DNA of 40,299 bases from a virus (lineage: Duplodnaviria > Caudoviricetes): the IMG/VR virus record IMGVR_UViG_3300037423_000838, positions 1 to 40,299 of that record; one strand, given 5' to 3'. Of this stretch, positions 1 to 38,861 are shown in pieces. The stretch's first letter is position 1, and each line of letters begins with the position of its first letter. The notes under the pieces are model-generated. The model had not been told where the DNA came from. It made no database searches and saw only the letters and a program-made list of their open reading frames with translations. Position numbers and translations under genes: made by a program.

Positions 1-62
1 GCCTTCTTACGTTTAACCTGTTGTAGTTGAGTCTGAAGATTTACGTACTGGTTATAACTCAT
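1..62 (-). CDS. 5' part of a gene running off the left edge (MSYNQYVNLQTQLQQVKRKK...)
   Basis: ATG at 62-60 overlaps the TGA of 59..700 (ATGA); AAGGAG upstream; frame open to the window edge. Confidence 0.6.
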   Translation of the reverse strand, partial: MSYNQYVNLQTQLQQVKRKK

Positions 63-700
63 TCGCTAATCTCCTTCATTGAATTAACGAACCTGAGGAA
101 TTTATGCAGGTCCTCGGTTTGTGGTGAGTCTTTTCCACCGAAAACTGCCAGGAATTTAGACATGTTACCTGTCATCGATTCGTGATCAGTTACTGTGTCA
201 ATCCAATCAATTGCTTTTGCCATCGCTGCTCTAGCATTAGTTAGCTCCTGCACTACTAATTGCCATTGCCTCTTAAGGTCGGCTTCTTTAAGTCCCTCTT
301 GCTGAGCAATTACAAACAGCTGTCCAAACAGCAGTGGAACTCTATTAACTGCTTTCTCGTCTAGCTGTTTCCAAACCCGGCGCTCGTCAATTAATTGATC
401 TGCCTTTAACATGAAAAAGCTAATGGGGAAAACTGTCCCATCATTAGCCTTCACGTGAGGCAATTGATTAATGTTTGTCTTTCGATAAAACTTCTTCTTA
501 TTGACTGTCTTGTAAAAGACAATCTGGTGTTTCTTCTCCAATTTCTGAAGAGCTCGATACAGAGGCCAGTAATCCGTAGTTGGGAAGGCTTGCTGAATCT
601 CACTCATAGAGAAAGGAATAACTTCATCCATTACATTGAGAATTCGTTCGTCTAATGGTTCACGATCTCCCAAAGCAAAGTCTACTGCTTGTTCTGTCAT
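59..700 (-). CDS. Putative winged-helix DNA-binding protein with helical C-terminal domain
   Basis: N-terminal pattern ERILNVM..FSMSEIQQAF..WPLYRALQKLEKKHQIVFYK..KKFY fits wHTH helices plus wing; GAAGGG RBS; amphipathic helical C-terminus. Confidence 0.6.
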   Translation of the reverse strand: MTEQAVDFALGDREPLDERILNVMDEVIPFSMSEIQQAFPTTDYWPLYRALQKLEKKHQIVFYKTVNKKKFYRKTNINQLPHVKANDGTVFPISFFMLKADQLIDERRVWKQLDEKAVNRVPLLFGQLFVIAQQEGLKEADLKRQWQLVVQELTNARAAMAKAIDWIDTVTDHESMTGNMSKFLAVFGGKDSPQTEDLHKFLRFVNSMKEISE

Positions 701-719
701 TATTTAATAACCCTTCAGT

Positions 720-1045
720 TGCAGAGATACTCAGCGCTAGACTGTTGCAGAGTTCCGAAGAGAGCTCCTCATTGTGCAGAGATAGCTGCTGTAGTACGCA
801 AGGATTGCAGAGATGGGAGCGTAGGTCAAGGTGCATAGATAATGCTTATAGAGGGAATATCTCAGTTGCACACTGGATTCTTGGAGAAGCGCAAAAGATG
901 CAATAATAGCCTTTGACGTGCTGAATCTTGAACGCATAGATAAGCAAGACTTGCAAGGGCCCTGAGTATTGAGTGGGCCGTACTAAGGAGGCCCACTCAG
1001 GGGCATACAAAGTTTGCAGTTTATAATTGATTCCAGTGCTGAGAT
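720..1045. repeat. Array of short direct repeats TGCAGAGAT with unique spacers
   Basis: Copies at 720 (exact), 746 (TGCAGAGTT), 775 (exact), 806 (exact), 832 (TGCATAGAT), 933 (CGCATAGAT), 1037 (TGCTGAGAT); weaker copies at 867, 890, 919. Confidence 0.75.
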
Positions 1046-1067
1046 AATTGTACTAATTTCTAGGGCT

Positions 1068-1089
1068 GCACACTATTGAATTGTCAAGA
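1068..1089 (-). promoter_or_regulatory. boxA/rrn-leader-like motif copy 1 (TCTTGACAATTCAATAGTGTGC)
   Basis: 21/22 identical to 2358..2379; about 60 nt downstream of a consensus promoter. Confidence 0.55.
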
Positions 1090-1151: not shown

Positions 1152-1180
1152 ATTGTAGCACAACCGATGGTACACGTCAA
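1152..1180 (-). promoter_or_regulatory. Sigma70/HrdB-type early promoter
   Basis: TTGACG-17 bp-TACAAT with extended -10 (TGC TACAAT). Confidence 0.8.
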
Positions 1181-1263: not shown

Positions 1264-1297
1264 AAAAAGAAAAGCCCTAGCTTAATAGCTAGGGCTT
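1264..1297 (-). terminator. Intrinsic terminator
   Basis: 11-bp stem AAGCCCTAGCT/AGCTAGGGCTT, 4-nt loop, U-tract on - strand, just after the stop at 1302. Confidence 0.85.
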
Positions 1298-1529: not shown

Positions 1530-2303
1530 TTACTTAGTAACTCGGATAAAGTAGGACTTGTCCTTGAGCGAGTAGTTAAAGGTGGTCTGCTCAGGAAGAA
1601 CGTTCCAATCCTTAACATCACCGTTCTGCCCAAACCAAGCCTCGTGCAAGTCACTAGCACCAATAGTCTCGCCGGTTTCCTTCTTCAGCCACTGAGTCAG
1701 AACACTAAAGGTAGACTTACCATCCTTCTCGACCTTAGTGTAAGACTGGCCATTATCAGTGCTAACTGCAATCTCACTAACACGCGGCCGGGAAGATCCT
1801 TCGCCCTGCCCAGACTTAGCACCAGAAGCACTACGCTTAGCCTTAGGAAGCTCACCTACATAATCGTAGATGTTAAGCTCAGGGTGATTAGATCCGACCT
1901 CCATAGTAAACATGCTATCGAGAGTCTTCACGTTACTTACGAGGTTCTTGTACTCCTCTTCGGCAGCCTTGATTTCCTCATCAGAAGGAATAGCAAGAGT
2001 AGGCTTAACCTTAGCCTCGATCTCCTTTTGCCAATTGAGAATAGCCTCATTAGCCTTCTCAATACGCGCAAGAGCCTGCTTAACCTCAGGATCCTCAGAC
2101 TGCTTAATAGCCTCACTAAGCAACTCGCCAATGTTTCCGGCCGCATTAACCTTAGCGGCAACACCCTTAAGCTTATCGACCAAAACCTGAGCCTTGGTAA
2201 CAACCAGACTGACCATAGGCGCATCAGTAAAAGAGTCCAGCTCCGGAATAACCTTGCTCGGCTTAACCTCAGCCTCAGGCGCAACAACAGTTTCAGTAGA
2301 CAT
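1530..2303 (-). CDS. Early protein, 257 aa: coiled coil, basic G/S linker, globular C-terminal domain
   Basis: ATG at 2303 with AAGGGG RBS; strongly biased codons; no family recognised. Confidence 0.8.
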   Translation of the reverse strand: MSTETVVAPEAEVKPSKVIPELDSFTDAPMVSLVVTKAQVLVDKLKGVAAKVNAAGNIGELLSEAIKQSEDPEVKQALARIEKANEAILNWQKEIEAKVKPTLAIPSDEEIKAAEEEYKNLVSNVKTLDSMFTMEVGSNHPELNIYDYVGELPKAKRSASGAKSGQGEGSSRPRVSEIAVSTDNGQSYTKVEKDGKSTFSVLTQWLKKETGETIGASDLHEAWFGQNGDVKDWNVLPEQTTFNYSLKDKSYFIRVTK

Positions 2304-2471: not shown

Positions 2472-2636
2472 CCCCTACGCCTAATCTTTTTCCATAACTT
2501 TGAGTTAACTCGAATTACCCAGCGTCACCAAGGACTGTTACATAATCGTTATCATGTTGTCTGGCTTTTTGGGTCCCATTCCACTAGCTTTTCCCCTATT
2601 TGCTTTACAAATTTTTAGAAAAATCAGACCAATTTC

Positions 2637-2882: not shown

Positions 2883-3359
2883 CCGTGGGCCTCCTATCGT
2901 CGGTCAGCTGGTTATACTCAGCTGCAAGTTGCACGCATTATGTGTGTTTCAAGACACTACTATATTCGATTAGAACAGGGACTATTTAACCTACCACCAC
3001 CTGGGGTGTGCGACCGCCTGGGGAAATTATTTAAGGTGGAGACTAAAGACATGCTGCAGAGTTACTTAGATTACCAAAAGAACACTAGATTAGCCTTCGG
3101 TAAAAATTACGAGAACTTCGACTTACTTTACAATTACAAGGGAGAAACGCACCCACTAGTTTTCTGGCGGGAACAACAGGACTTAAGTAGGATTGGATTA
3201 TGTAAGGGGTTATGCTTACACCAGGACTTAGTCAGAAATTACGAGAACAACAAGCAGAGGCACCCACCTCAGGAATTATATACTGCATGTGACTTGATTG
3301 GTTGGGATATCCTGGCCTTAACAGGCGCTGTGGAATCTTGGAGGGTTAGATGGCACTAA
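2862..3359 (+). CDS. Tandem XRE/Cro-type helix-turn-helix protein
   Basis: Two similar halves: HPWASYRRSAGYTQLQVARIMCVSRHYYIRLEQG and HPLVFWREQQDLSRIGLCKGLCLHQDLVRNYENN; start may alternatively be 2844. Confidence 0.75.
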   Translation: MKTILVHPWASYRRSAGYTQLQVARIMCVSRHYYIRLEQGLFNLPPPGVCDRLGKLFKVETKDMLQSYLDYQKNTRLAFGKNYENFDLLYNYKGETHPLVFWREQQDLSRIGLCKGLCLHQDLVRNYENNKQRHPPQELYTACDLIGWDILALTGAVESWRVRWH

Positions 3360-4030
3360 CTGAAATTGAACGTAGAATAGTCGCAACTATTGAAGAAAGA
3401 TGGATGAGACATGCGAGCATTCCCAGTCCCAGAGAAATTGCAGAAGCATTTGGACTCCCGGAAAAGAAGGCAAGTGAACTTCTTATGGGAGATGCAATTA
3501 TCGGGGCACTCAAGTCCCGAGGAATACCTACGACTAATGCAAATGGTCTTAACCCAGAACAAGTAACAGCTATTAACACTGTTGTAAATCCAATGGATAC
3601 TAGGTCACGTAGGAAGAAGCTACAGGACCTGGGAGTAAGTGCTCAGCAATGGGCAGGTTGGATGAAGCAGCCTAAGTTTAAAGAATACTATGCAGACTTA
3701 TCTAGGAAGCTCTTAGAAGAAGCAATTCCTGAAGCTCACATGGCACTAGTAGATAACGTACTACGTGGAGACTTAGGAAGCATTAAATATCTCAATGAGA
3801 TGACTGGAGAGTATAGAGGCACTGAGCAGCAAATTAATCCTGCAGAGCTAGTTCAAAAGGTTATTGAAGTAATTCAGGTCCACGTAAAAGATCCAGAAAC
3901 ACTATTAGCTATCTCCCAAGATCTTTTGGGGCTTGCATCTCCTGGTAGAGTTAATGTCAACACAGTCCCTGGTGAAATTATTTCTCCGGCCCCTGTAGCT
4001 CCGTCTTCTACTATACTGGAGATGTTCTAA
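3350..4030 (+). CDS. terS: Probable terminase small subunit (HTH-containing)
   Basis: HTH-like segments PSPREIAEAFGL and LQDLGVSAQQWAGWMKQPKFKEYY, GDLGSIKY helix; upstream of terL; GGAGG RBS. Confidence 0.65.
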   Translation: MALTEIERRIVATIEERWMRHASIPSPREIAEAFGLPEKKASELLMGDAIIGALKSRGIPTTNANGLNPEQVTAINTVVNPMDTRSRRKKLQDLGVSAQQWAGWMKQPKFKEYYADLSRKLLEEAIPEAHMALVDNVLRGDLGSIKYLNEMTGEYRGTEQQINPAELVQKVIEVIQVHVKDPETLLAISQDLLGLASPGRVNVNTVPGEIISPAPVAPSSTILEMF

Positions 4031-25911: not shown

Positions 25912-26322
25912 ATGACAACACTGTTGGCCATAGGGATATGGCGGAAGTGGGCACAGTGCTTAGGACAAGAAGCTTTATTTCAACAAAATCCCAAAAAAGC
26001 TAAAAAAGAGATTTGCAGTAATTGCCCAGTTATAGAGCAATGTTTAAAGTACGCCTTAATTTATGATGAACACGGAATTTGGGGAGGAACTACGAAAGAA
26101 TCCCGAGAGCTAATAATTCGGGATCAACCTGAGATTCGGACGATGTTGATACAGGAGGCGAGGGCTCTTGGGATTTATGAGGTTCGGAAATCTGCTGATG
26201 ATTACTATCAGGCGATGAGGAAGACTCAGGCTCGTTACTCGAAAGAGAAAGTATTTGATCCTGTGGCGTCTCAGTGGGATTGGAACGATCCTGATACTTG
26301 GCTAGTTCAAGCAGAACTTTAA
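25912..26322 (+). CDS. whiB: WhiB family Fe-S transcription factor
   Basis: W..WAQC, AKKEICSNCPVIEQCLKYAL, GIWGGTT..R: four Cys plus the G[IV]WGG turn. Confidence 0.93.
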   Translation: MTTLLAIGIWRKWAQCLGQEALFQQNPKKAKKEICSNCPVIEQCLKYALIYDEHGIWGGTTKESRELIIRDQPEIRTMLIQEARALGIYEVRKSADDYYQAMRKTQARYSKEKVFDPVASQWDWNDPDTWLVQAEL

Positions 26323-26671
26323 GTGCTTTTGGAGGAATAGAGTACTCAGTAGGAATCTGAGATCTTCTCCACATATCGTCAGCATGCATAGGATTCCAAT
26401 AGATTCCCACTTTCTCAAGGGAAGCTATTCTGCATTCAGTTGAGCAGTTGCTGACGAATTTATATGTCGTGAGGAAAGTTTCACGACAATTAGCACAAGT
26501 TTTTCTTTTGAAAGCATCAGGTGTTTCTAAGAATAAACCAATAGCTTCAGCTTCTCGGGCGTGGCCACTAGCAAGGTGGCCACGTCTTTTTTCTTGTACT
26601 TCTTCAACAGTGATACCAAGAATTTCAGCTGTTGCCTGATCCAATTTTAGCTGTTTGGTCGATTCTTTCAA
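26090..26671 (-). CDS. Hypothetical zinc-binding protein (CxxC...CxxxC) with S/P-rich tail
   Basis: CANC and CSTEC motifs; TTG start uncertain; tail overlaps whiB antisense. Confidence 0.6.
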   Translation of the reverse strand: MKESTKQLKLDQATAEILGITVEEVQEKRRGHLASGHAREAEAIGLFLETPDAFKRKTCANCRETFLTTYKFVSNCSTECRIASLEKVGIYWNPMHADDMWRRSQIPTEYSIPPKALKVLLELAKYQDRSNPTETPQDQILSLSSNEPESSSSPDSNHQQISEPHKSQEPSPPVSTSSESQVDPELLALGILS

Positions 26672-32218: not shown

Positions 32219-32291
32219 TAGCGATGGTGGGATTCGAACCCACACTGTACGGAGTTTAAGTCCGCTCTCTCTGCCATTGGAGTACATCGCC
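32219..32291 (-). tRNA. tRNA-Leu (anticodon UAA), short variable loop, CCA not encoded
   Basis: Acceptor GGCGATG/CATCGCT, discriminator A, anticodon arm GCGGA-CTTAAAC-TCCGT, T arm GTGGG-TTCGAAT-CCCAC. Confidence 0.9.
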
Positions 32292-32559: not shown

Positions 32560-33012
32560 TCACTCGAAAGGGTTACCACCACTGCCCGTAGAAGCATCCG
32601 CTACAGCAATACTGCGGACGTTCTCGCTACCATTCTTGTTGTAAATAGTAACATCGTACTGCTGGTTCATGTTCATAAGATCTTCAGCCTGCAGATCATT
32701 AATACGCTCAGCAGGAACACCCATGTCCATCATGGTCTTCTTAAGCTGAGAAACTGCAGTAGCTGCCTTACCTCGGAATTCATCATCCGAACTCTTAAGG
32801 TCTGCAGCAGTAGGGATCCAATACCAGGGAGTGATATTGCGTCCCTTCTTTTCTCCCTTAACAATCTTAAATTCCAGCCGAAGGCCCTGCTTATCTCCCT
32901 TAGCAGTAGGCTTAACAGAAAGCCCCACAAGATCACAGAGATAAGTACCGTCCGGCTTAAGCCACGGGTTGTCCTCTGCCGACTCTACGTCAAGTTCACC
33001 AAAAAGACTCAT
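32560..33012 (-). CDS. Putative single-stranded DNA-binding protein (DUF669-like)
   Basis: KPDGTY...LRLEFKIVKGEKKGR OB-like pattern; flexible tail ending NPFE; next to a Sak4-like ATPase. Confidence 0.7.
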   Translation of the reverse strand: MSLFGELDVESAEDNPWLKPDGTYLCDLVGLSVKPTAKGDKQGLRLEFKIVKGEKKGRNITPWYWIPTAADLKSSDDEFRGKAATAVSQLKKTMMDMGVPAERINDLQAEDLMNMNQQYDVTIYNKNGSENVRSIAVADASTGSGGNPFE

Positions 33013-33013
33013 T

Positions 33014-33898
33014 TTAAATTTCCAATCCTGTAGCTACTTCAATTTCTTCTGGGTCGTTTTCTAGTTCCATTGGAGCATCTTTTTCTGGCAGTAGTTCTCC
33101 TCCTGTAGCTTGCCATTCATCCACAATTTTACGAAGACTCCAAAGATTACTTACGTTAATGGTAAGAGGTAAGCCACCGATACGAGTCTTAGCGATAGTT
33201 GTCTTCGTCGGATGCACTTGGAGTTCGCGTTCGTAGATAACGTTACCAGCGCTGTCAAGATCCTTTGCAGTAGCACTCATATAACCAATCATACTGGTCA
33301 TACCGTTAATAGATGCAAGAATCTTAGGTGAGAAGTCAGGGACTGTCTTGATTCCCATCTCAATGCCAGCCTTTTTAAGTTGAACGTCTCGGGCATGAGC
33401 CGTAACTATGATGTTGACTGGACACATGAAGAGATTCAGGAAAGCCATACGAACTCTATGTGCGTTCTGTTTGTAGTTAGCCCACATATCGTTATCAAAG
33501 TCGAATCTATCGATGCCACCCTTGGCTTCAATAGCCTTCTTAGTAACAACATCTAGATCTAGATTAGCGATATTAGATCCAGTGTCAATCAGAACTGTGT
33601 CATGCTTAGTGATTCCTGGAATGCCTTCTTTATAAGCTTGTGCAATTGCTTCAATCTGAGAGACACCCTGATAAGGCATACGAGTCATTCGATTGTTGGC
33701 AACTAGTTCTGGGTGATTAAAGAGGGACTGCCAACCTTCAGGATCTGCTTCTACATGCAAGACCTTATGTCCAAAAGTTCCTGCAAGAGCTGTCTTACCT
33801 ACACCAGGATCTCCAAAGATAAGAGACTTGAAATACTTAGTACTCTCCTCCATTGGAAACATGCCGTCTAACAGAGCATTTAGAATTTTAGCATCCAT
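33014..33898 (-). CDS. AAA_24/Sak4-like ATPase (recombination)
   Basis: LIFGDPGVGKT, TVLIDT, NIIVTAH, AKTR. Confidence 0.85.
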   Translation of the reverse strand: MDAKILNALLDGMFPMEESTKYFKSLIFGDPGVGKTALAGTFGHKVLHVEADPEGWQSLFNHPELVANNRMTRMPYQGVSQIEAIAQAYKEGIPGITKHDTVLIDTGSNIANLDLDVVTKKAIEAKGGIDRFDFDNDMWANYKQNAHRVRMAFLNLFMCPVNIIVTAHARDVQLKKAGIEMGIKTVPDFSPKILASINGMTSMIGYMSATAKDLDSAGNVIYERELQVHPTKTTIAKTRIGGLPLTINVSNLWSLRKIVDEWQATGGELLPEKDAPMELENDPEEIEVATGLEI

Positions 33899-36162: not shown

Positions 36163-36607
36163 TAGAAGGTTCTATCTTAGTGCCTCCTAGAAATTTAAGA
36201 AGACGCTCGGCTACAATCTCAGGAGTATGTCCATCATATTCTGCTGATTGAAGTCTATCCTCGATATCAAATAAATCCCAATACTCCATTTTGTAATGAT
36301 TAGAGATCTGACCCGTAGGGAGCTGAGCTACAACAATAAACCAACCACCATCGAAGCAGAGTTCTCCATCACTATGACGCATACTCTTGTGCACATCATA
36401 GAGATTTAGCTGCCACCACTCATTAAATAAGGCAGCATTATAAAGCATACGATAGGTATAAAGTTCTCTATAAGAGTGATGCCCATCAGAGACTTCATCC
36501 AAATCAAAATACACATGAAGGTCTTTAGGTTCGATAGGTCGCCAATTAGTAGAACCAGTTCTTACAAAAAGTTCATGAGACACTTCGACTTCTCCTTCTG
36601 TAGCCAC
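36149..36607 (-). CDS. Conserved phage protein (WDGH-like)
   Basis: DGHHSYRELY, KSMRHSDG, GWFIV..LPTGQISNHY..WDLF, YDGHT. Confidence 0.7.
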   Translation of the reverse strand: MATEGEVEVSHELFVRTGSTNWRPIEPKDLHVYFDLDEVSDGHHSYRELYTYRMLYNAALFNEWWQLNLYDVHKSMRHSDGELCFDGGWFIVVAQLPTGQISNHYKMEYWDLFDIEDRLQSAEYDGHTPEIVAERLLKFLGGTKIEPSSDLR

Positions 36608-36725
36608 GAGTTGCTTGCTTAAGACGTAGAGAAATTGTATAGACGCCTGTAGGGCTATTCTCTGAAATTAAAGCATCAGCTACACGGCCACCTAATTCAA
36701 TTTGATCCAGCTTGCGCCTATTCAT
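36573..36725 (-). CDS. Small hypothetical protein, 50 aa (not in ORF track)
   Basis: TAATG coupling, AGGA upstream; MNRRKLDQIELGGRVADAL... Confidence 0.45.
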   Translation of the reverse strand: MNRRKLDQIELGGRVADALISENSPTGVYTISLRLKQATRGYRRRSRSVS

Positions 36726-36871
36726 TAAAGCATCCTATCAATAATATCTTGAATATCTTCTCCATCTTTCACAATAGAAATAATTACGGGGAGATTTTCA
36801 TCATCAACCTCACCTGTTATTGTAATGAGTTCATTTTCATCATTACGATACTCAATAATTACAGTTCTCAT
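36725..36871 (-). CDS. Small acidic protein, 48 aa (not in ORF track)
   Basis: TAATG overlaps at both ends; MRTVIIEYRNDENELITITGEV... Confidence 0.6.
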   Translation of the reverse strand: MRTVIIEYRNDENELITITGEVDDENLPVIISIVKDGEDIQDIIDRML

Positions 36872-37125
36872 TACGTCCCTGCCATGTGATAGTCAGTAAG
36901 TCTATTATCTCCGAACTCGGGATCAACCCATACAACATATGAGTCTCCACCATGACCATGAATTGCTTCCATATCTTCTAATGTATTCCAGACATGAGTT
37001 ACTGGCCTTTTACCTCTCCAACGAACTGCTAAAGAACCATCTGGAAATTGAATACCATCAGCTACAGGGCCTGTGCCACTAACACCTGATGGATCTACAT
37101 CTCTATACCAGATAAATCTTCGCAT
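36871..37125 (-). CDS. Conserved actinophage-type hypothetical protein (HGH motif)
   Basis: RDVDPSGVSGTG.VADGIQFPDG..AVRW...IHGHGG. Confidence 0.75.
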   Translation of the reverse strand: MRRFIWYRDVDPSGVSGTGPVADGIQFPDGSLAVRWRGKRPVTHVWNTLEDMEAIHGHGGDSYVVWVDPEFGDNRLTDYHMAGT

Positions 37126-37139
37126 TGTTCCCCAGCTTT

Positions 37140-37313
37140 CTATCTAGGACAGTTATGGGTGTTAGCTTTTTCAACTAAATCAGAAAGGCTATCCCCATTT
37201 ACACTTAAATTCTCACCCACTGTACAGCCACACATTCTATGAATTAAAAGCACGTCCTCTGGAGATACTACATAGACATTAAATTCTGATAAATCAGCCA
37301 TTGGTCCTGCCAT
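37140..37313 (-). CDS. Small hypothetical protein, 57 aa (HxxC...HxC; not in ORF track)
   Basis: TAATG coupling; AAGGA RBS. Confidence 0.55.
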   Translation of the reverse strand: MAGPMADLSEFNVYVVSPEDVLLIHRMCGCTVGENLSVNGDSLSDLVEKANTHNCPR

Positions 37314-37600
37314 TAGAATAGTTCCTTATTCTTCTTAGCTTGTTCAAGATTCTTCTTAGCTCTTTCATAGTTAAACTCAGCCCTTAAAGCTGCTACTCGC
37401 ATTTCTTCAAGGACCATTCGTTGATTGGCAATACTCTCTTCTTGCCATTCTTGCATATCTGGGAGCTGAATTGACATATCACGCCAACCCTTAGATTGCA
37501 TCCAATTAATAAACCATTCCTGATGTACTTCAAAGATCTGATCTAGCTCATGGTGAAATGCTTCTTCAGGCTCAGCAGCCTTGTCATTTGGTGCAGTCAT
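37313..37600 (-). CDS. Hypothetical coiled-coil protein
   Basis: AAGGAG RBS. Confidence 0.7.
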   Translation of the reverse strand: MTAPNDKAAEPEEAFHHELDQIFEVHQEWFINWMQSKGWRDMSIQLPDMQEWQEESIANQRMVLEEMRVAALRAEFNYERAKKNLEQAKKNKELF

Positions 37601-37620
37601 AATCTAATTCTCCTTATAAA

Positions 37621-37790
37621 CGCTTGTTGGGGCTAATACAAGGGATGAGAGGTCTGACATTACGCCAGACATGATGCCTTGTATAGCCCCAACTCTTTTG
37701 CGATTACTCGCAGCTTATGAAATTTTAGGTGAAGGCTTAACCGACCTTCATGAGAGAGATTGTTAAGAACAAGCGAAGCTCTCACGGCTT
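37621..37790 (-). ncRNA. Structured intergenic RNA (long hairpin, GNRA hairpin, boxA-like site)
   Basis: Stem 37626-37658/37664-37693 with internal loop; TGCGA-GTAA-TCGCA; TGTTCTTAACAAT at 37771-37759. Confidence 0.5.
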
Positions 37791-37801
37791 GTGTTATTTA
37801 C

Positions 37802-38182
37802 TTACTCCTCCGCAGAAGCTACCTTAGTAGCCGGAGGAGGATTAAAGCGAAGATAAAGAGCAGAAGCTCCTCTATCGGTAACAATTCCCTTGTCATCAGT
37901 AACCGGCTTGCGGGTTACCTCGTGACGAGCTTCCCAACCCTTATCGGCAGGGAAATCCTTGGTGTTGTTGTTATTAATCTGCGAAGACTTAGATTGTGCT
38001 CCCTGCGCACTATCGTAGTCATTCTTAACGCAAGCCCACTGTCCAGGATTCTCTTCTAGCAAAAGCTTTGCAGTCGCCCACCGCTCAGTATCAGTAGTAC
38101 GCGGACGAGGAGCAGGCGGGACCTTATCCTCAGAGACGAAAGTAATGCCGTGTGCGTTCGGAATCTGGGTAACTTCAGTCAT
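37802..38182 (-). CDS. Hypothetical protein, 126 aa (W...L.ENPGQWA motif)
   Basis: AAAGG RBS; own promoter; biased codons. Confidence 0.75.
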   Translation of the reverse strand: MTEVTQIPNAHGITFVSEDKVPPAPRPRTTDTERWATAKLLLEENPGQWACVKNDYDSAQGAQSKSSQINNNNTKDFPADKGWEARHEVTRKPVTDDKGIVTDRGASALYLRFNPPPATKVASAEE

Positions 38183-38213
38183 GATGTGTGCCTTTCAAAG
38201 GGTTGTTGGGTAC

Positions 38214-38242
38214 AGCTTACCTGGGTAGCGAACGAATGTCTA
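38214..38242 (-). promoter_or_regulatory. Promoter for 37802..38182
   Basis: TAGACA-17 bp-TAAGCT. Confidence 0.6.
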
Positions 38243-38861
38243 TATCTTTTGCCGACGATTCGTACATCTTTACCTGATCCCATGGCCCGAGCTTGTCCAC
38301 GAGCTTCAGATCCAGACCAGTAGCAATCAGAGGATACTTACGATAATAGTTACCATCAAACATACAACTATTACGACTGCCAAGAACATGACCAAGACCG
38401 AGGATATGACCAAATTCATGACAGACCGTCGTTTCTTTTTAGGCTCCTGTGATATTGATTATATTATTTAGTCGAATGACCATACTAGAAGGAATACCTC
38501 GGCGGCCGAAGTTAGTTTCCCCAGCATATTCTGTAGAGAGATTGTTAACTTTGGAAACTGTTACACAAGGATAGTTCCATCCGGGACACTTGGATACAAA
38601 CTTAATCTGTGTGTACTTAGCTTTCTCCCAACTTGAAATGGCCTCCTGTAGCTTCCAATTAGGGTCTACATTTTTATTGATAACGTAGATCGTGACCGTT
38701 TGTACTTCTGGGGTGCCCAATGACACACTCGACGGCTGTTCGGGCGTTACAGGTGCCATTGTGGGCGAATGAGAGGCATCTGAGGGGGTCACGTAGCGGT
38801 GGGGATCGACCGCGCAGCCCGTTAATAAACACGCAATCACCACTAATTTTAGTAGCTTCAT
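38217..38861 (-). pseudogene. Metzincin-type zinc metalloprotease lipoprotein interrupted by an in-frame TAA at 38441-38439
   Basis: Lipobox LTG-C; the frame continues after the stop as KETTVCHEFGHILGLGH...SCM to TAA at 38217. Confidence 0.85.

Follow-up and report, generated by a model that had tools for sequence, protein, structure and literature searches.

The short direct repeats at positions 720-840 of the 40.3-kb partial phage genome analysed here (40,299 nucleotides, hereafter the window) appear, from comparison of related sequences, to belong to a larger, origin-like module that borders a predicted terminal repeat. The best reading of this arrangement, to which we give a probability of roughly 55%, is an iteron-type initiation site that would be read by the winged-helix protein encoded beside it. 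Repeats and hairpin together make up a DNA module, likely a landing pad at which DNA copying would start at the predicted chromosome end; it recurs in a family of soil phages that resemble Jasmine and infect actinobacteria. A sequence-only reading of this region had proposed three functions for the array: a CsrB-like RNA decoy, a precursor of ~28-nt guide RNAs, or an iteron or operator array for the adjacent winged-helix protein. The last fits the comparative evidence and the two RNA functions do not. That reading had not picked up the hairpin (962-1003), the TTGACGTGC motif (913-921) or the predicted terminal-repeat border.

The window belongs to a Jasminevirus/Shocker-like actinobacterial podovirus and encodes a terminase, portal, capsid, WhiB, PolA, primase-helicase, Sak4 and exonuclease, with a helicase gene cut at its right end. 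In the capsid protein it shares 44-49% identity with Cellulosimicrobium phage DS1, Microbacterium phage Shocker and the Jasminevirus group. No gene for a phage RNA polymerase turned up in this partial genome. The array region is flanked by the first leftward early gene (59..700) and by a gene at the position of the Lsr2-like gene of Jasmine, a podovirus described in PMC5513430 as having a 1,330-bp direct terminal repeat that holds the Lsr2-like gene. The protein of the window gene (1530..2303) resembles Jasmine gp1 only weakly (BLASTP E 0.083; profile E 0.0065) and gave no Lsr2 Pfam match. GC-skew turning points track gene strand and were set aside.

Several further observations concern the genome at large. 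CTGTAGC is the commonest 7-mer in the window (54 copies, both strands), and CCTGTAG occurs 39 times, in coding and non-coding DNA, against ~4 expected from base composition; this word is common in uncultured relatives (0.6-1.6 per kb), while Jasmine, Adat, Shocker and DS1 have it at only 0.07-0.19 per kb, and it may serve as a nicking, protein-binding or modification site. The WhiB-like gene at 25912-26322 (plus strand) overlaps an opposite-strand open reading frame at 26090-26671 (minus strand) at the convergence point, as likewise in Jasmine, Adat and Casserole. A strain in run X2 is without 143 nt between 32073 and 32217 of the window, and breaks or branches occur at ~32224-32275 in several X1 contigs, which suggests a variable or shared element in this intergenic stretch. 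At 36600-38440, long gaps separate short leftward genes (for example 36607-36871, 37125-37313 and 38182-38439).

The features of the module and its surroundings are as follows.

59..700, minus strand: gene for a 213-aa protein with an N-terminal winged helix (~10-77), a beta-hairpin and a C-terminal helical hairpin (model and fold matches); likely reader of the repeats
711..715, minus strand: ribosome-binding-like AAGGG of the 59..700 gene (sequence)
720..840, plus strand: five TGCAGAGAT-type direct repeats, at 720, 746, 775, 806 and 832, with unrelated spacers (sequence, shuffles, comparison with the relative L005)
913..921, plus strand: TTGACGTGC, a one-mismatch form of the NTGACCWGS motif; L005 has GTGACCTGC here
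933..941, plus strand: sixth repeat copy, CGCATAGAT, exactly 11 nt past the motif; L005 has TGCAGAGAT at the same spacing
962..1003, core 970-999 with a 10-nt loop: GC-rich hairpin or palindrome (DNA fold, conservation in L005)
1005..1075: modestly AT-rich stretch, candidate unwinding region (66% A+T; L005 71%; window average 57%)
1152..1180, minus strand: sigma-70-type promoter TTGACG-17-TACAAT pointing through hairpin and array (consensus match only; kept in L005)
1272..1297: terminator-like hairpin, 3' of the 1530..2303 gene
1530..2303, minus strand: gene at the position of Jasmine's Lsr2-like gene, within the predicted terminal repeat (synteny)
2553..2584, plus strand: CATGTTG-N19-TTCCAC motif, predicted right edge (2584) of a direct terminal repeat (mapped ends of relatives)
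3350..4030, plus strand: terminase small subunit, rival reader of the repeats (PHROG 24579, E 7.5e-8)

The array was found much as the sequence-only reading had described it. Three copies of TGCAGAGAT, at 720, 775 and 806, are perfect, and the two at 746 and 832 each differ at one position, giving periods of 26, 29, 31 and 26 nt and spacers of 17, 20, 22 and 17 nt; TCAGTTGCA occurs only at 715 and 862. These five copies are the largest one-mismatch family of 9-mers within 125 nt anywhere in the window, and dinucleotide shuffles, 40 of the whole window and 1000 of the local stretch 701-1150, never reached five copies, so that the clustering exceeds chance. The decaying copies that had been claimed at 867-1037 stand at 933 (two mismatches) and at 1037 (one mismatch, a lone copy inside the AT-rich stretch); those at 867, 899, 952 and 1016 share little beyond TGCA. 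Helical phasing was tried and rejected: the window repeats are not phased (p 0.87), and 4 of 24 tests were nominally below 0.05. Nucleotide searches returned no match to the array in phage or plasmid records, plasmids giving only a terminator-like 32-nt match. A pattern scan for motif plus repeat gave 14 viral loci, which were taken as chance since none had a second repeat copy. A near-identical 22-nt element, TTGWCAATTCAATAGTGTGC, lies on the minus strand at 1068-1089 and 2358-2379, with similar copies in L005 and L026; it is possibly an operator or a phage-specific promoter element.

The closest comparison comes from L005, a metagenome contig that holds the upstream DNA of a homolog of the 59..700 protein. 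Between it and the window, 41 of 54 repeat columns are identical (76%) as against 34 of 76 spacer columns (45%), the pattern of kept repeats and varying spacers that had been suggested as a check, and the hairpin core is identical in 21 of 22 columns. The alignment contains only 5 gap columns over 701-1003, which together with the higher identity of repeats than of spacers indicates that the spacing is constrained. The hairpin folds as DNA with z scores of -3.8 in the window, -4.2 in L005 and -4.8 in Jasmine, and beats all 200 shuffles in each.

A terminase-based scan, from which the best 80 of 313 related loci were taken, gave 89 loci with the named genomes added and 64 after redundancy was removed. 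As judged from their sequences, many of these relatives have the same layout: a short-repeat array, a CTGACCWGS motif, then a hairpin. Around 80 non-terminator hairpins in the 64 loci, TGACCWGS was present within 300 nt on the left 24 times and on the right once (~5 expected per side). The 260 nt to the left of the hairpin were richer in repeats than shuffles in 10 of 12 loci selected by motif and in 6 of 6 selected by synteny, in a test for which several arrays had been seen before locus choice and the motif itself was left unmasked; six of the 12 motif-selected loci were repeat-rich to the right as well, more weakly in most. The repeat unit is specific to each phage (TGCAGAGAT, GGGAAAC, TGTCAA, TGAGAA, ACTGAA, CGTGTA, TATGCA, CCTAG or CTATCC), and most relatives carry it on both strands; all copies in the window and L005 are on one strand. 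Repeats on both strands, with a unit that differs between phages, point to double-stranded DNA sites and argue against RNA decoys or guides.

The first or second gene to the left of the module encodes an HTH-type protein in 9 of 26 loci (seven profile-supported, two by eye); in the other 17, no HTH gene was recognised among the nearest leftward genes. The nearest recognised HTH gene of Jasmine lies several genes away from the module, and another gene sits between module and winged-helix gene in L026. One informative pair, L017 and L018, has small terminases that are 69% identical, winged-helix proteins that are 30% identical and different repeat units.

Three of the relatives have peculiarities of their own near this junction. 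L048 has a second dense array at 450-640 (TAGCAG/CAGCATTAG units), ~600 nt left of its TATGCA module. The gene at the Lsr2 position is inverted in L018 (~1400-2680) relative to other relatives. Upstream of the rightward operon, L007 (~2668) and L018 (~2818) carry CGAAC-N4-GTTCG-like sites, which resemble actinobacterial LexA boxes.

The winged-helix call for the adjacent gene holds for residues ~10-77. The AF2 model of the protein has a pLDDT of 90, and its fold matches are of the Fur/PadR/MarR-type winged helix (best Z 9.0, rmsd 1.8, 62 aligned); the C-terminal part gave generic helical matches only (Z<=6.1), with nothing distinctive. Searches of the ESM Atlas returned only archaeal wHTH-like clusters and Fur-type folds, and no known initiator family stood out in sequence or fold searches. 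On its modelled fold the protein could as well be a transcription regulator of the Fur/PadR/MarR kind as anything else, and an initiator role is suggested because of its genomic context, not homology. Its family comprises 37 profile matches at E<=0.001, itself included, with four close homologs at 47-54% identity. The HTH protein of L050 is a remote homolog (E 2.6e-4), and the similarity of the L038 and L034 proteins to the family was not significant. The HTH proteins of DS1 (32659-33291), Jasmine (gp50) and Shocker (gp57) have no detectable homology to it. Scans of viral contigs with this protein, its alignment, the 1530..2303 protein or the hairpin pattern were blank.

The module also coincides with mapped genome ends in cultured relatives. 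The genomes of Jasmine, Adat and Casserole start within a hairpin loop, and the hairpin comes immediately after a CTATCC array located at the same gene position. At the other end, the mapped right ends of Jasmine, Adat and Shocker coincide exactly with the end of a YATGTTR-N11..21-TTCCAV motif (17 plus-strand and 2 minus-strand matches in the 64 loci); in Casserole the motif runs 8 nt beyond the mapped end. This conserved motif can be used to predict genome ends across the phage family. By analogy with Jasminevirus, the left genome end is predicted to lie in the hairpin at 962..1003, so that right-end motif and hairpin loop together predict a terminal repeat at ~990-2584 of the window; its length of ~1.6 kb is close to the 1,551 bp of Adat. 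Shocker is a misfit at its left end, where no hairpin folds (z +2.4) and the motif-plus-repeat cluster lies ~520 nt away; GATCGA repeats precede its GACC|GGTC end, a short palindrome. Contig depth in one run, possibly that of the source sample, was, rightward from 873, 13.2, 11.6, 9.1 and 9.3, and 6.4 left of 789, a step that weakly hints at something starting at the array and running rightward; the contig gap at 789-873 itself carries no weight as evidence of a genome end.

The motif links the module to the chromosomal origin of actinomycetes. A scan of genomes for the motif before a DnaA box returned 120 loci, mostly actinobacterial; among the 80 matches listed, 9 lie between dnaA and dnaN, 8 of these with an 11-nt gap. 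An unselected, class-level sample of oriC comprised 30 loci, of which 22 dnaA-dnaN gaps were used after exclusion of 2 unpublished loci and 6 without a dnaN call. CTGACCWGS was present in 13 of the 22 gaps, with 12 of 14 matches on the dnaA-sense strand, and a DnaA box stood exactly 11 nt past the motif for 4 of the 12 dnaA-sense matches by script (<=1 mismatch) and for 4 more by eye. Motif density in the gaps (1.37/kb) is near that of coding DNA (0.92/kb), and the strict motif-plus-box pattern was found in only 8 of 151 genomes of a phylum-wide sample, with varied spacing. Since the motif also stands beside DnaA boxes away from oriC (71 of the 80 listed loci have no dnaA-dnaN call), the motif alone is no origin marker. 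In Streptomyces loci among L092-L167, CTGACCTGS precedes a DnaA box by 22 nt (45 of the 120 loci), mostly away from oriC, a spacing one helical turn longer than that of oriC.

In the phages, a locally repeated 5-mer was found at offset 11 from 8 of 62 non-coding motif matches against a background of 2.7% (p 2.5e-4; 0.015 over 61 offsets), in a test that used loci inspected beforehand and that at another threshold (9 of 62) was not significant after correction (0.24). The 11-nt spacing is common to the window, where the motif has one mismatch, and L005. L038 has TTATCCAC at offset 11 from the motif, and MW202795 carries DnaA-box-like sites in its module, four to the left and two to the right of the hairpin. 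The 300 nt left of the window's own hairpin contain no DnaA box, and one TTATCCAC lies to its right at ~1232. In several phages, the window included, the phage's own repeat appears, on sequence, to occupy the slot that the DnaA box has in oriC.

Several other explanations were weighed. That the cluster arose by chance, or that the region is an unannotated protein-coding gene, is so improbable that it hardly needs to be entertained. Two open frames in the window, of 83 aa (655..906) and 66 aa (737..937), do run across the array, and a 111-aa frame is present in L005; none is common to the two sequences, identity by codon phase is flat (0.52/0.53/0.60) and no PHROG matched, which bears out the earlier statement that no credible reading frame occupies the array, and the shuffles speak against chance. 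An RNA function, either a multivalent decoy or a ~28-nt small-RNA precursor made from the 445-nt leader, is very unlikely. It is true that in the window and L005 every copy is on a single strand, behind a conserved promoter, and the hairpin could form in RNA too. In most relatives, however, the repeats are on both strands; the leader folds with a z of only -1.07 (13 of 100 shuffles fold as well) and contains only three GGA, no Rfam family matched at threshold, and the spacers match the phage genome no better than shuffles do (best p 0.03 of four).

Two explanations that keep the array as DNA deserve more weight, and both are compatible with the iteron reading, not exclusive of it. The stronger of the two, though still improbable, is a packaging or end-processing signal, in which the small terminase, whose N-terminus carries an HTH-like segment, would bind the repeats and direct the first cut to the hairpin loop; comparable elements are the short repeats that flank T7-type terminal repeats and the pac boxes of SPP1 and P1. 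The Jasmine, Adat and Casserole starts in the hairpin loop, the GATCGA repeats before the Shocker end and the right-end motif conserved in the window all agree with it, and packaging from the array would fit the depth step as well. The T7-like fPS phages offer a parallel, in which a stretch of 11-34 repeats separates the left terminal repeat from promoter P1 (PMC5923468, Table 4). Against packaging, the repeat unit does not follow small-terminase similarity (L017 and L018, among few pairs), neither DnaA-box-like sites nor oriC-type spacing would be needed, and the mapped-end evidence comes from one genus, with the Shocker motif cluster away from its end. Somewhat less probable still is an operator array at which the winged-helix protein would repress or roadblock the early leftward transcript of its own gene and play no part in DNA synthesis. 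The regulator-like fold and the position of the array within the leader of the first leftward gene suit this explanation, but none of the sites overlaps the promoter, from which they are 210-430 nt downstream, another gene separates module from winged-helix gene in L026, and the conserved hairpin, the fixed 11-nt spacing and the coincidence with Jasminevirus ends are left unexplained.

Under the iteron-type reading, several copies of the 59..700 protein would load onto the array as double-stranded DNA sites, together with a host factor that would occupy the CTGACCWGS site. The DNA might then be opened or nicked on the side of the hairpin and AT-rich stretch, and the phage primase-helicase and polymerase would synthesise rightward, for genome replication, terminal-repeat duplication on concatemers, or both. 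The predicted minus-strand promoter, a consensus match as previously noted, would read leftward (1180-1152) through the module and place the initiator gene first among the early genes, so that autoregulation is possible as a side role. A more speculative extension, which we consider rather doubtful, is that these phages borrowed an element of oriC (CTGACCWGS 11 nt before an initiator site), swapped its DnaA box for a fast-evolving repeat read by a new winged-helix initiator, and use the module hairpin as the left genome end. If that were true, replication initiation and long-terminal-repeat duplication would be one reaction, and a sequence-specific host factor would act at actinomycete oriC.

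The module bears on how replication starts in podoviruses that have a T7-like polymerase and primase-helicase and no recognisable RNA polymerase, and on how phages with kilobase-long terminal repeats duplicate them. It provides a defined candidate of 300-400 bp that is testable in the cultured relatives Jasmine, Adat, Shocker and DS1, and the spacing it has in common with actinomycete oriC (CTGACCWGS-N11-box; CTGACCTGC-N11-box) points to a host origin component. The literature searched, which included few subscription papers and old scans, gave no description of the module, the oriC-like spacing, the right-end motif or the host component; PMC4925675 and PMC12628072 gave general background only.

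Among known systems, there are those in which a short repeat with variable spacers lies in a transcribed leader, namely the CsrB/RsmZ decoys and CRISPR arrays. The window has all of these properties, its transcription resting on the predicted promoter. It differs from them in that its leader has neither GGA loops nor a structure signal, its repeats are only 9 nt as against 20 nt or more for CRISPR (too short, as the sequence-only reading had said), the units in relatives are independent of orientation, and neither did the spacers match targets in this genome nor the array any phage or plasmid record.

Repeats beside terminal repeats are a known kind, exemplified by the SRL and SRR short repeats and the M-hairpin of T7. 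As in the T7-type flanks, a non-coding short-repeat array lies between the terminal repeat, here a predicted one, and the first early gene, and there is a hairpin, that of T7 being implicated in terminal-repeat duplication. The terminal repeats of T7 have to be duplicated, and models for this involve nicking and a hairpin (PMC4281155). The window differs in that no phage RNA polymerase is present in the part covered, the predicted terminal repeat contains a gene, and the repeat unit is an unrelated one, tied to a host-type motif and to a winged-helix gene. The Jasminevirus (cluster AV) junction has array then hairpin in the corresponding place, with the last of the leftward genes on one side and the Lsr2-position gene on the other, and it has the right-end motif; it differs in its CTATCC unit, beside which no TGACCWGS was found, and in having no detected homolog of the 59..700 protein. 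The literature searched gave no description of this terminal-repeat junction.

The oriC of the actinomycete genomes sampled shares with the module the order of CTGACCWGS, an initiator-type site 11 nt later, a GC tract or hairpin and an AT-richer stretch. The combination of motif and initiator-type site at 11 nt, which was defined in this analysis and is not a published criterion, is found in the window with the one-mismatch motif at 913 and the repeat at 933, and one relative (MW202795) has DnaA-box-like sites. The difference is that a phage-specific repeat replaces the DnaA box, which the window array lacks.

Iteron-type origins, also a known kind, include lambda ori with O, SPP1 oriL with G38P and the Rep-iteron origins of plasmids. 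The module departs from them in its shorter units (5-9 nt), irregular spacing and, in most relatives, both orientations, in a hairpin that looks obligatory, and in a winged-helix protein with no detected homology to a known initiator. It resembles them in having short repeats beside a winged-helix gene, a modestly AT-rich stretch on one side as a candidate unwinding region and a predicted promoter reading through, and in the way that unit and protein diverge between relatives.
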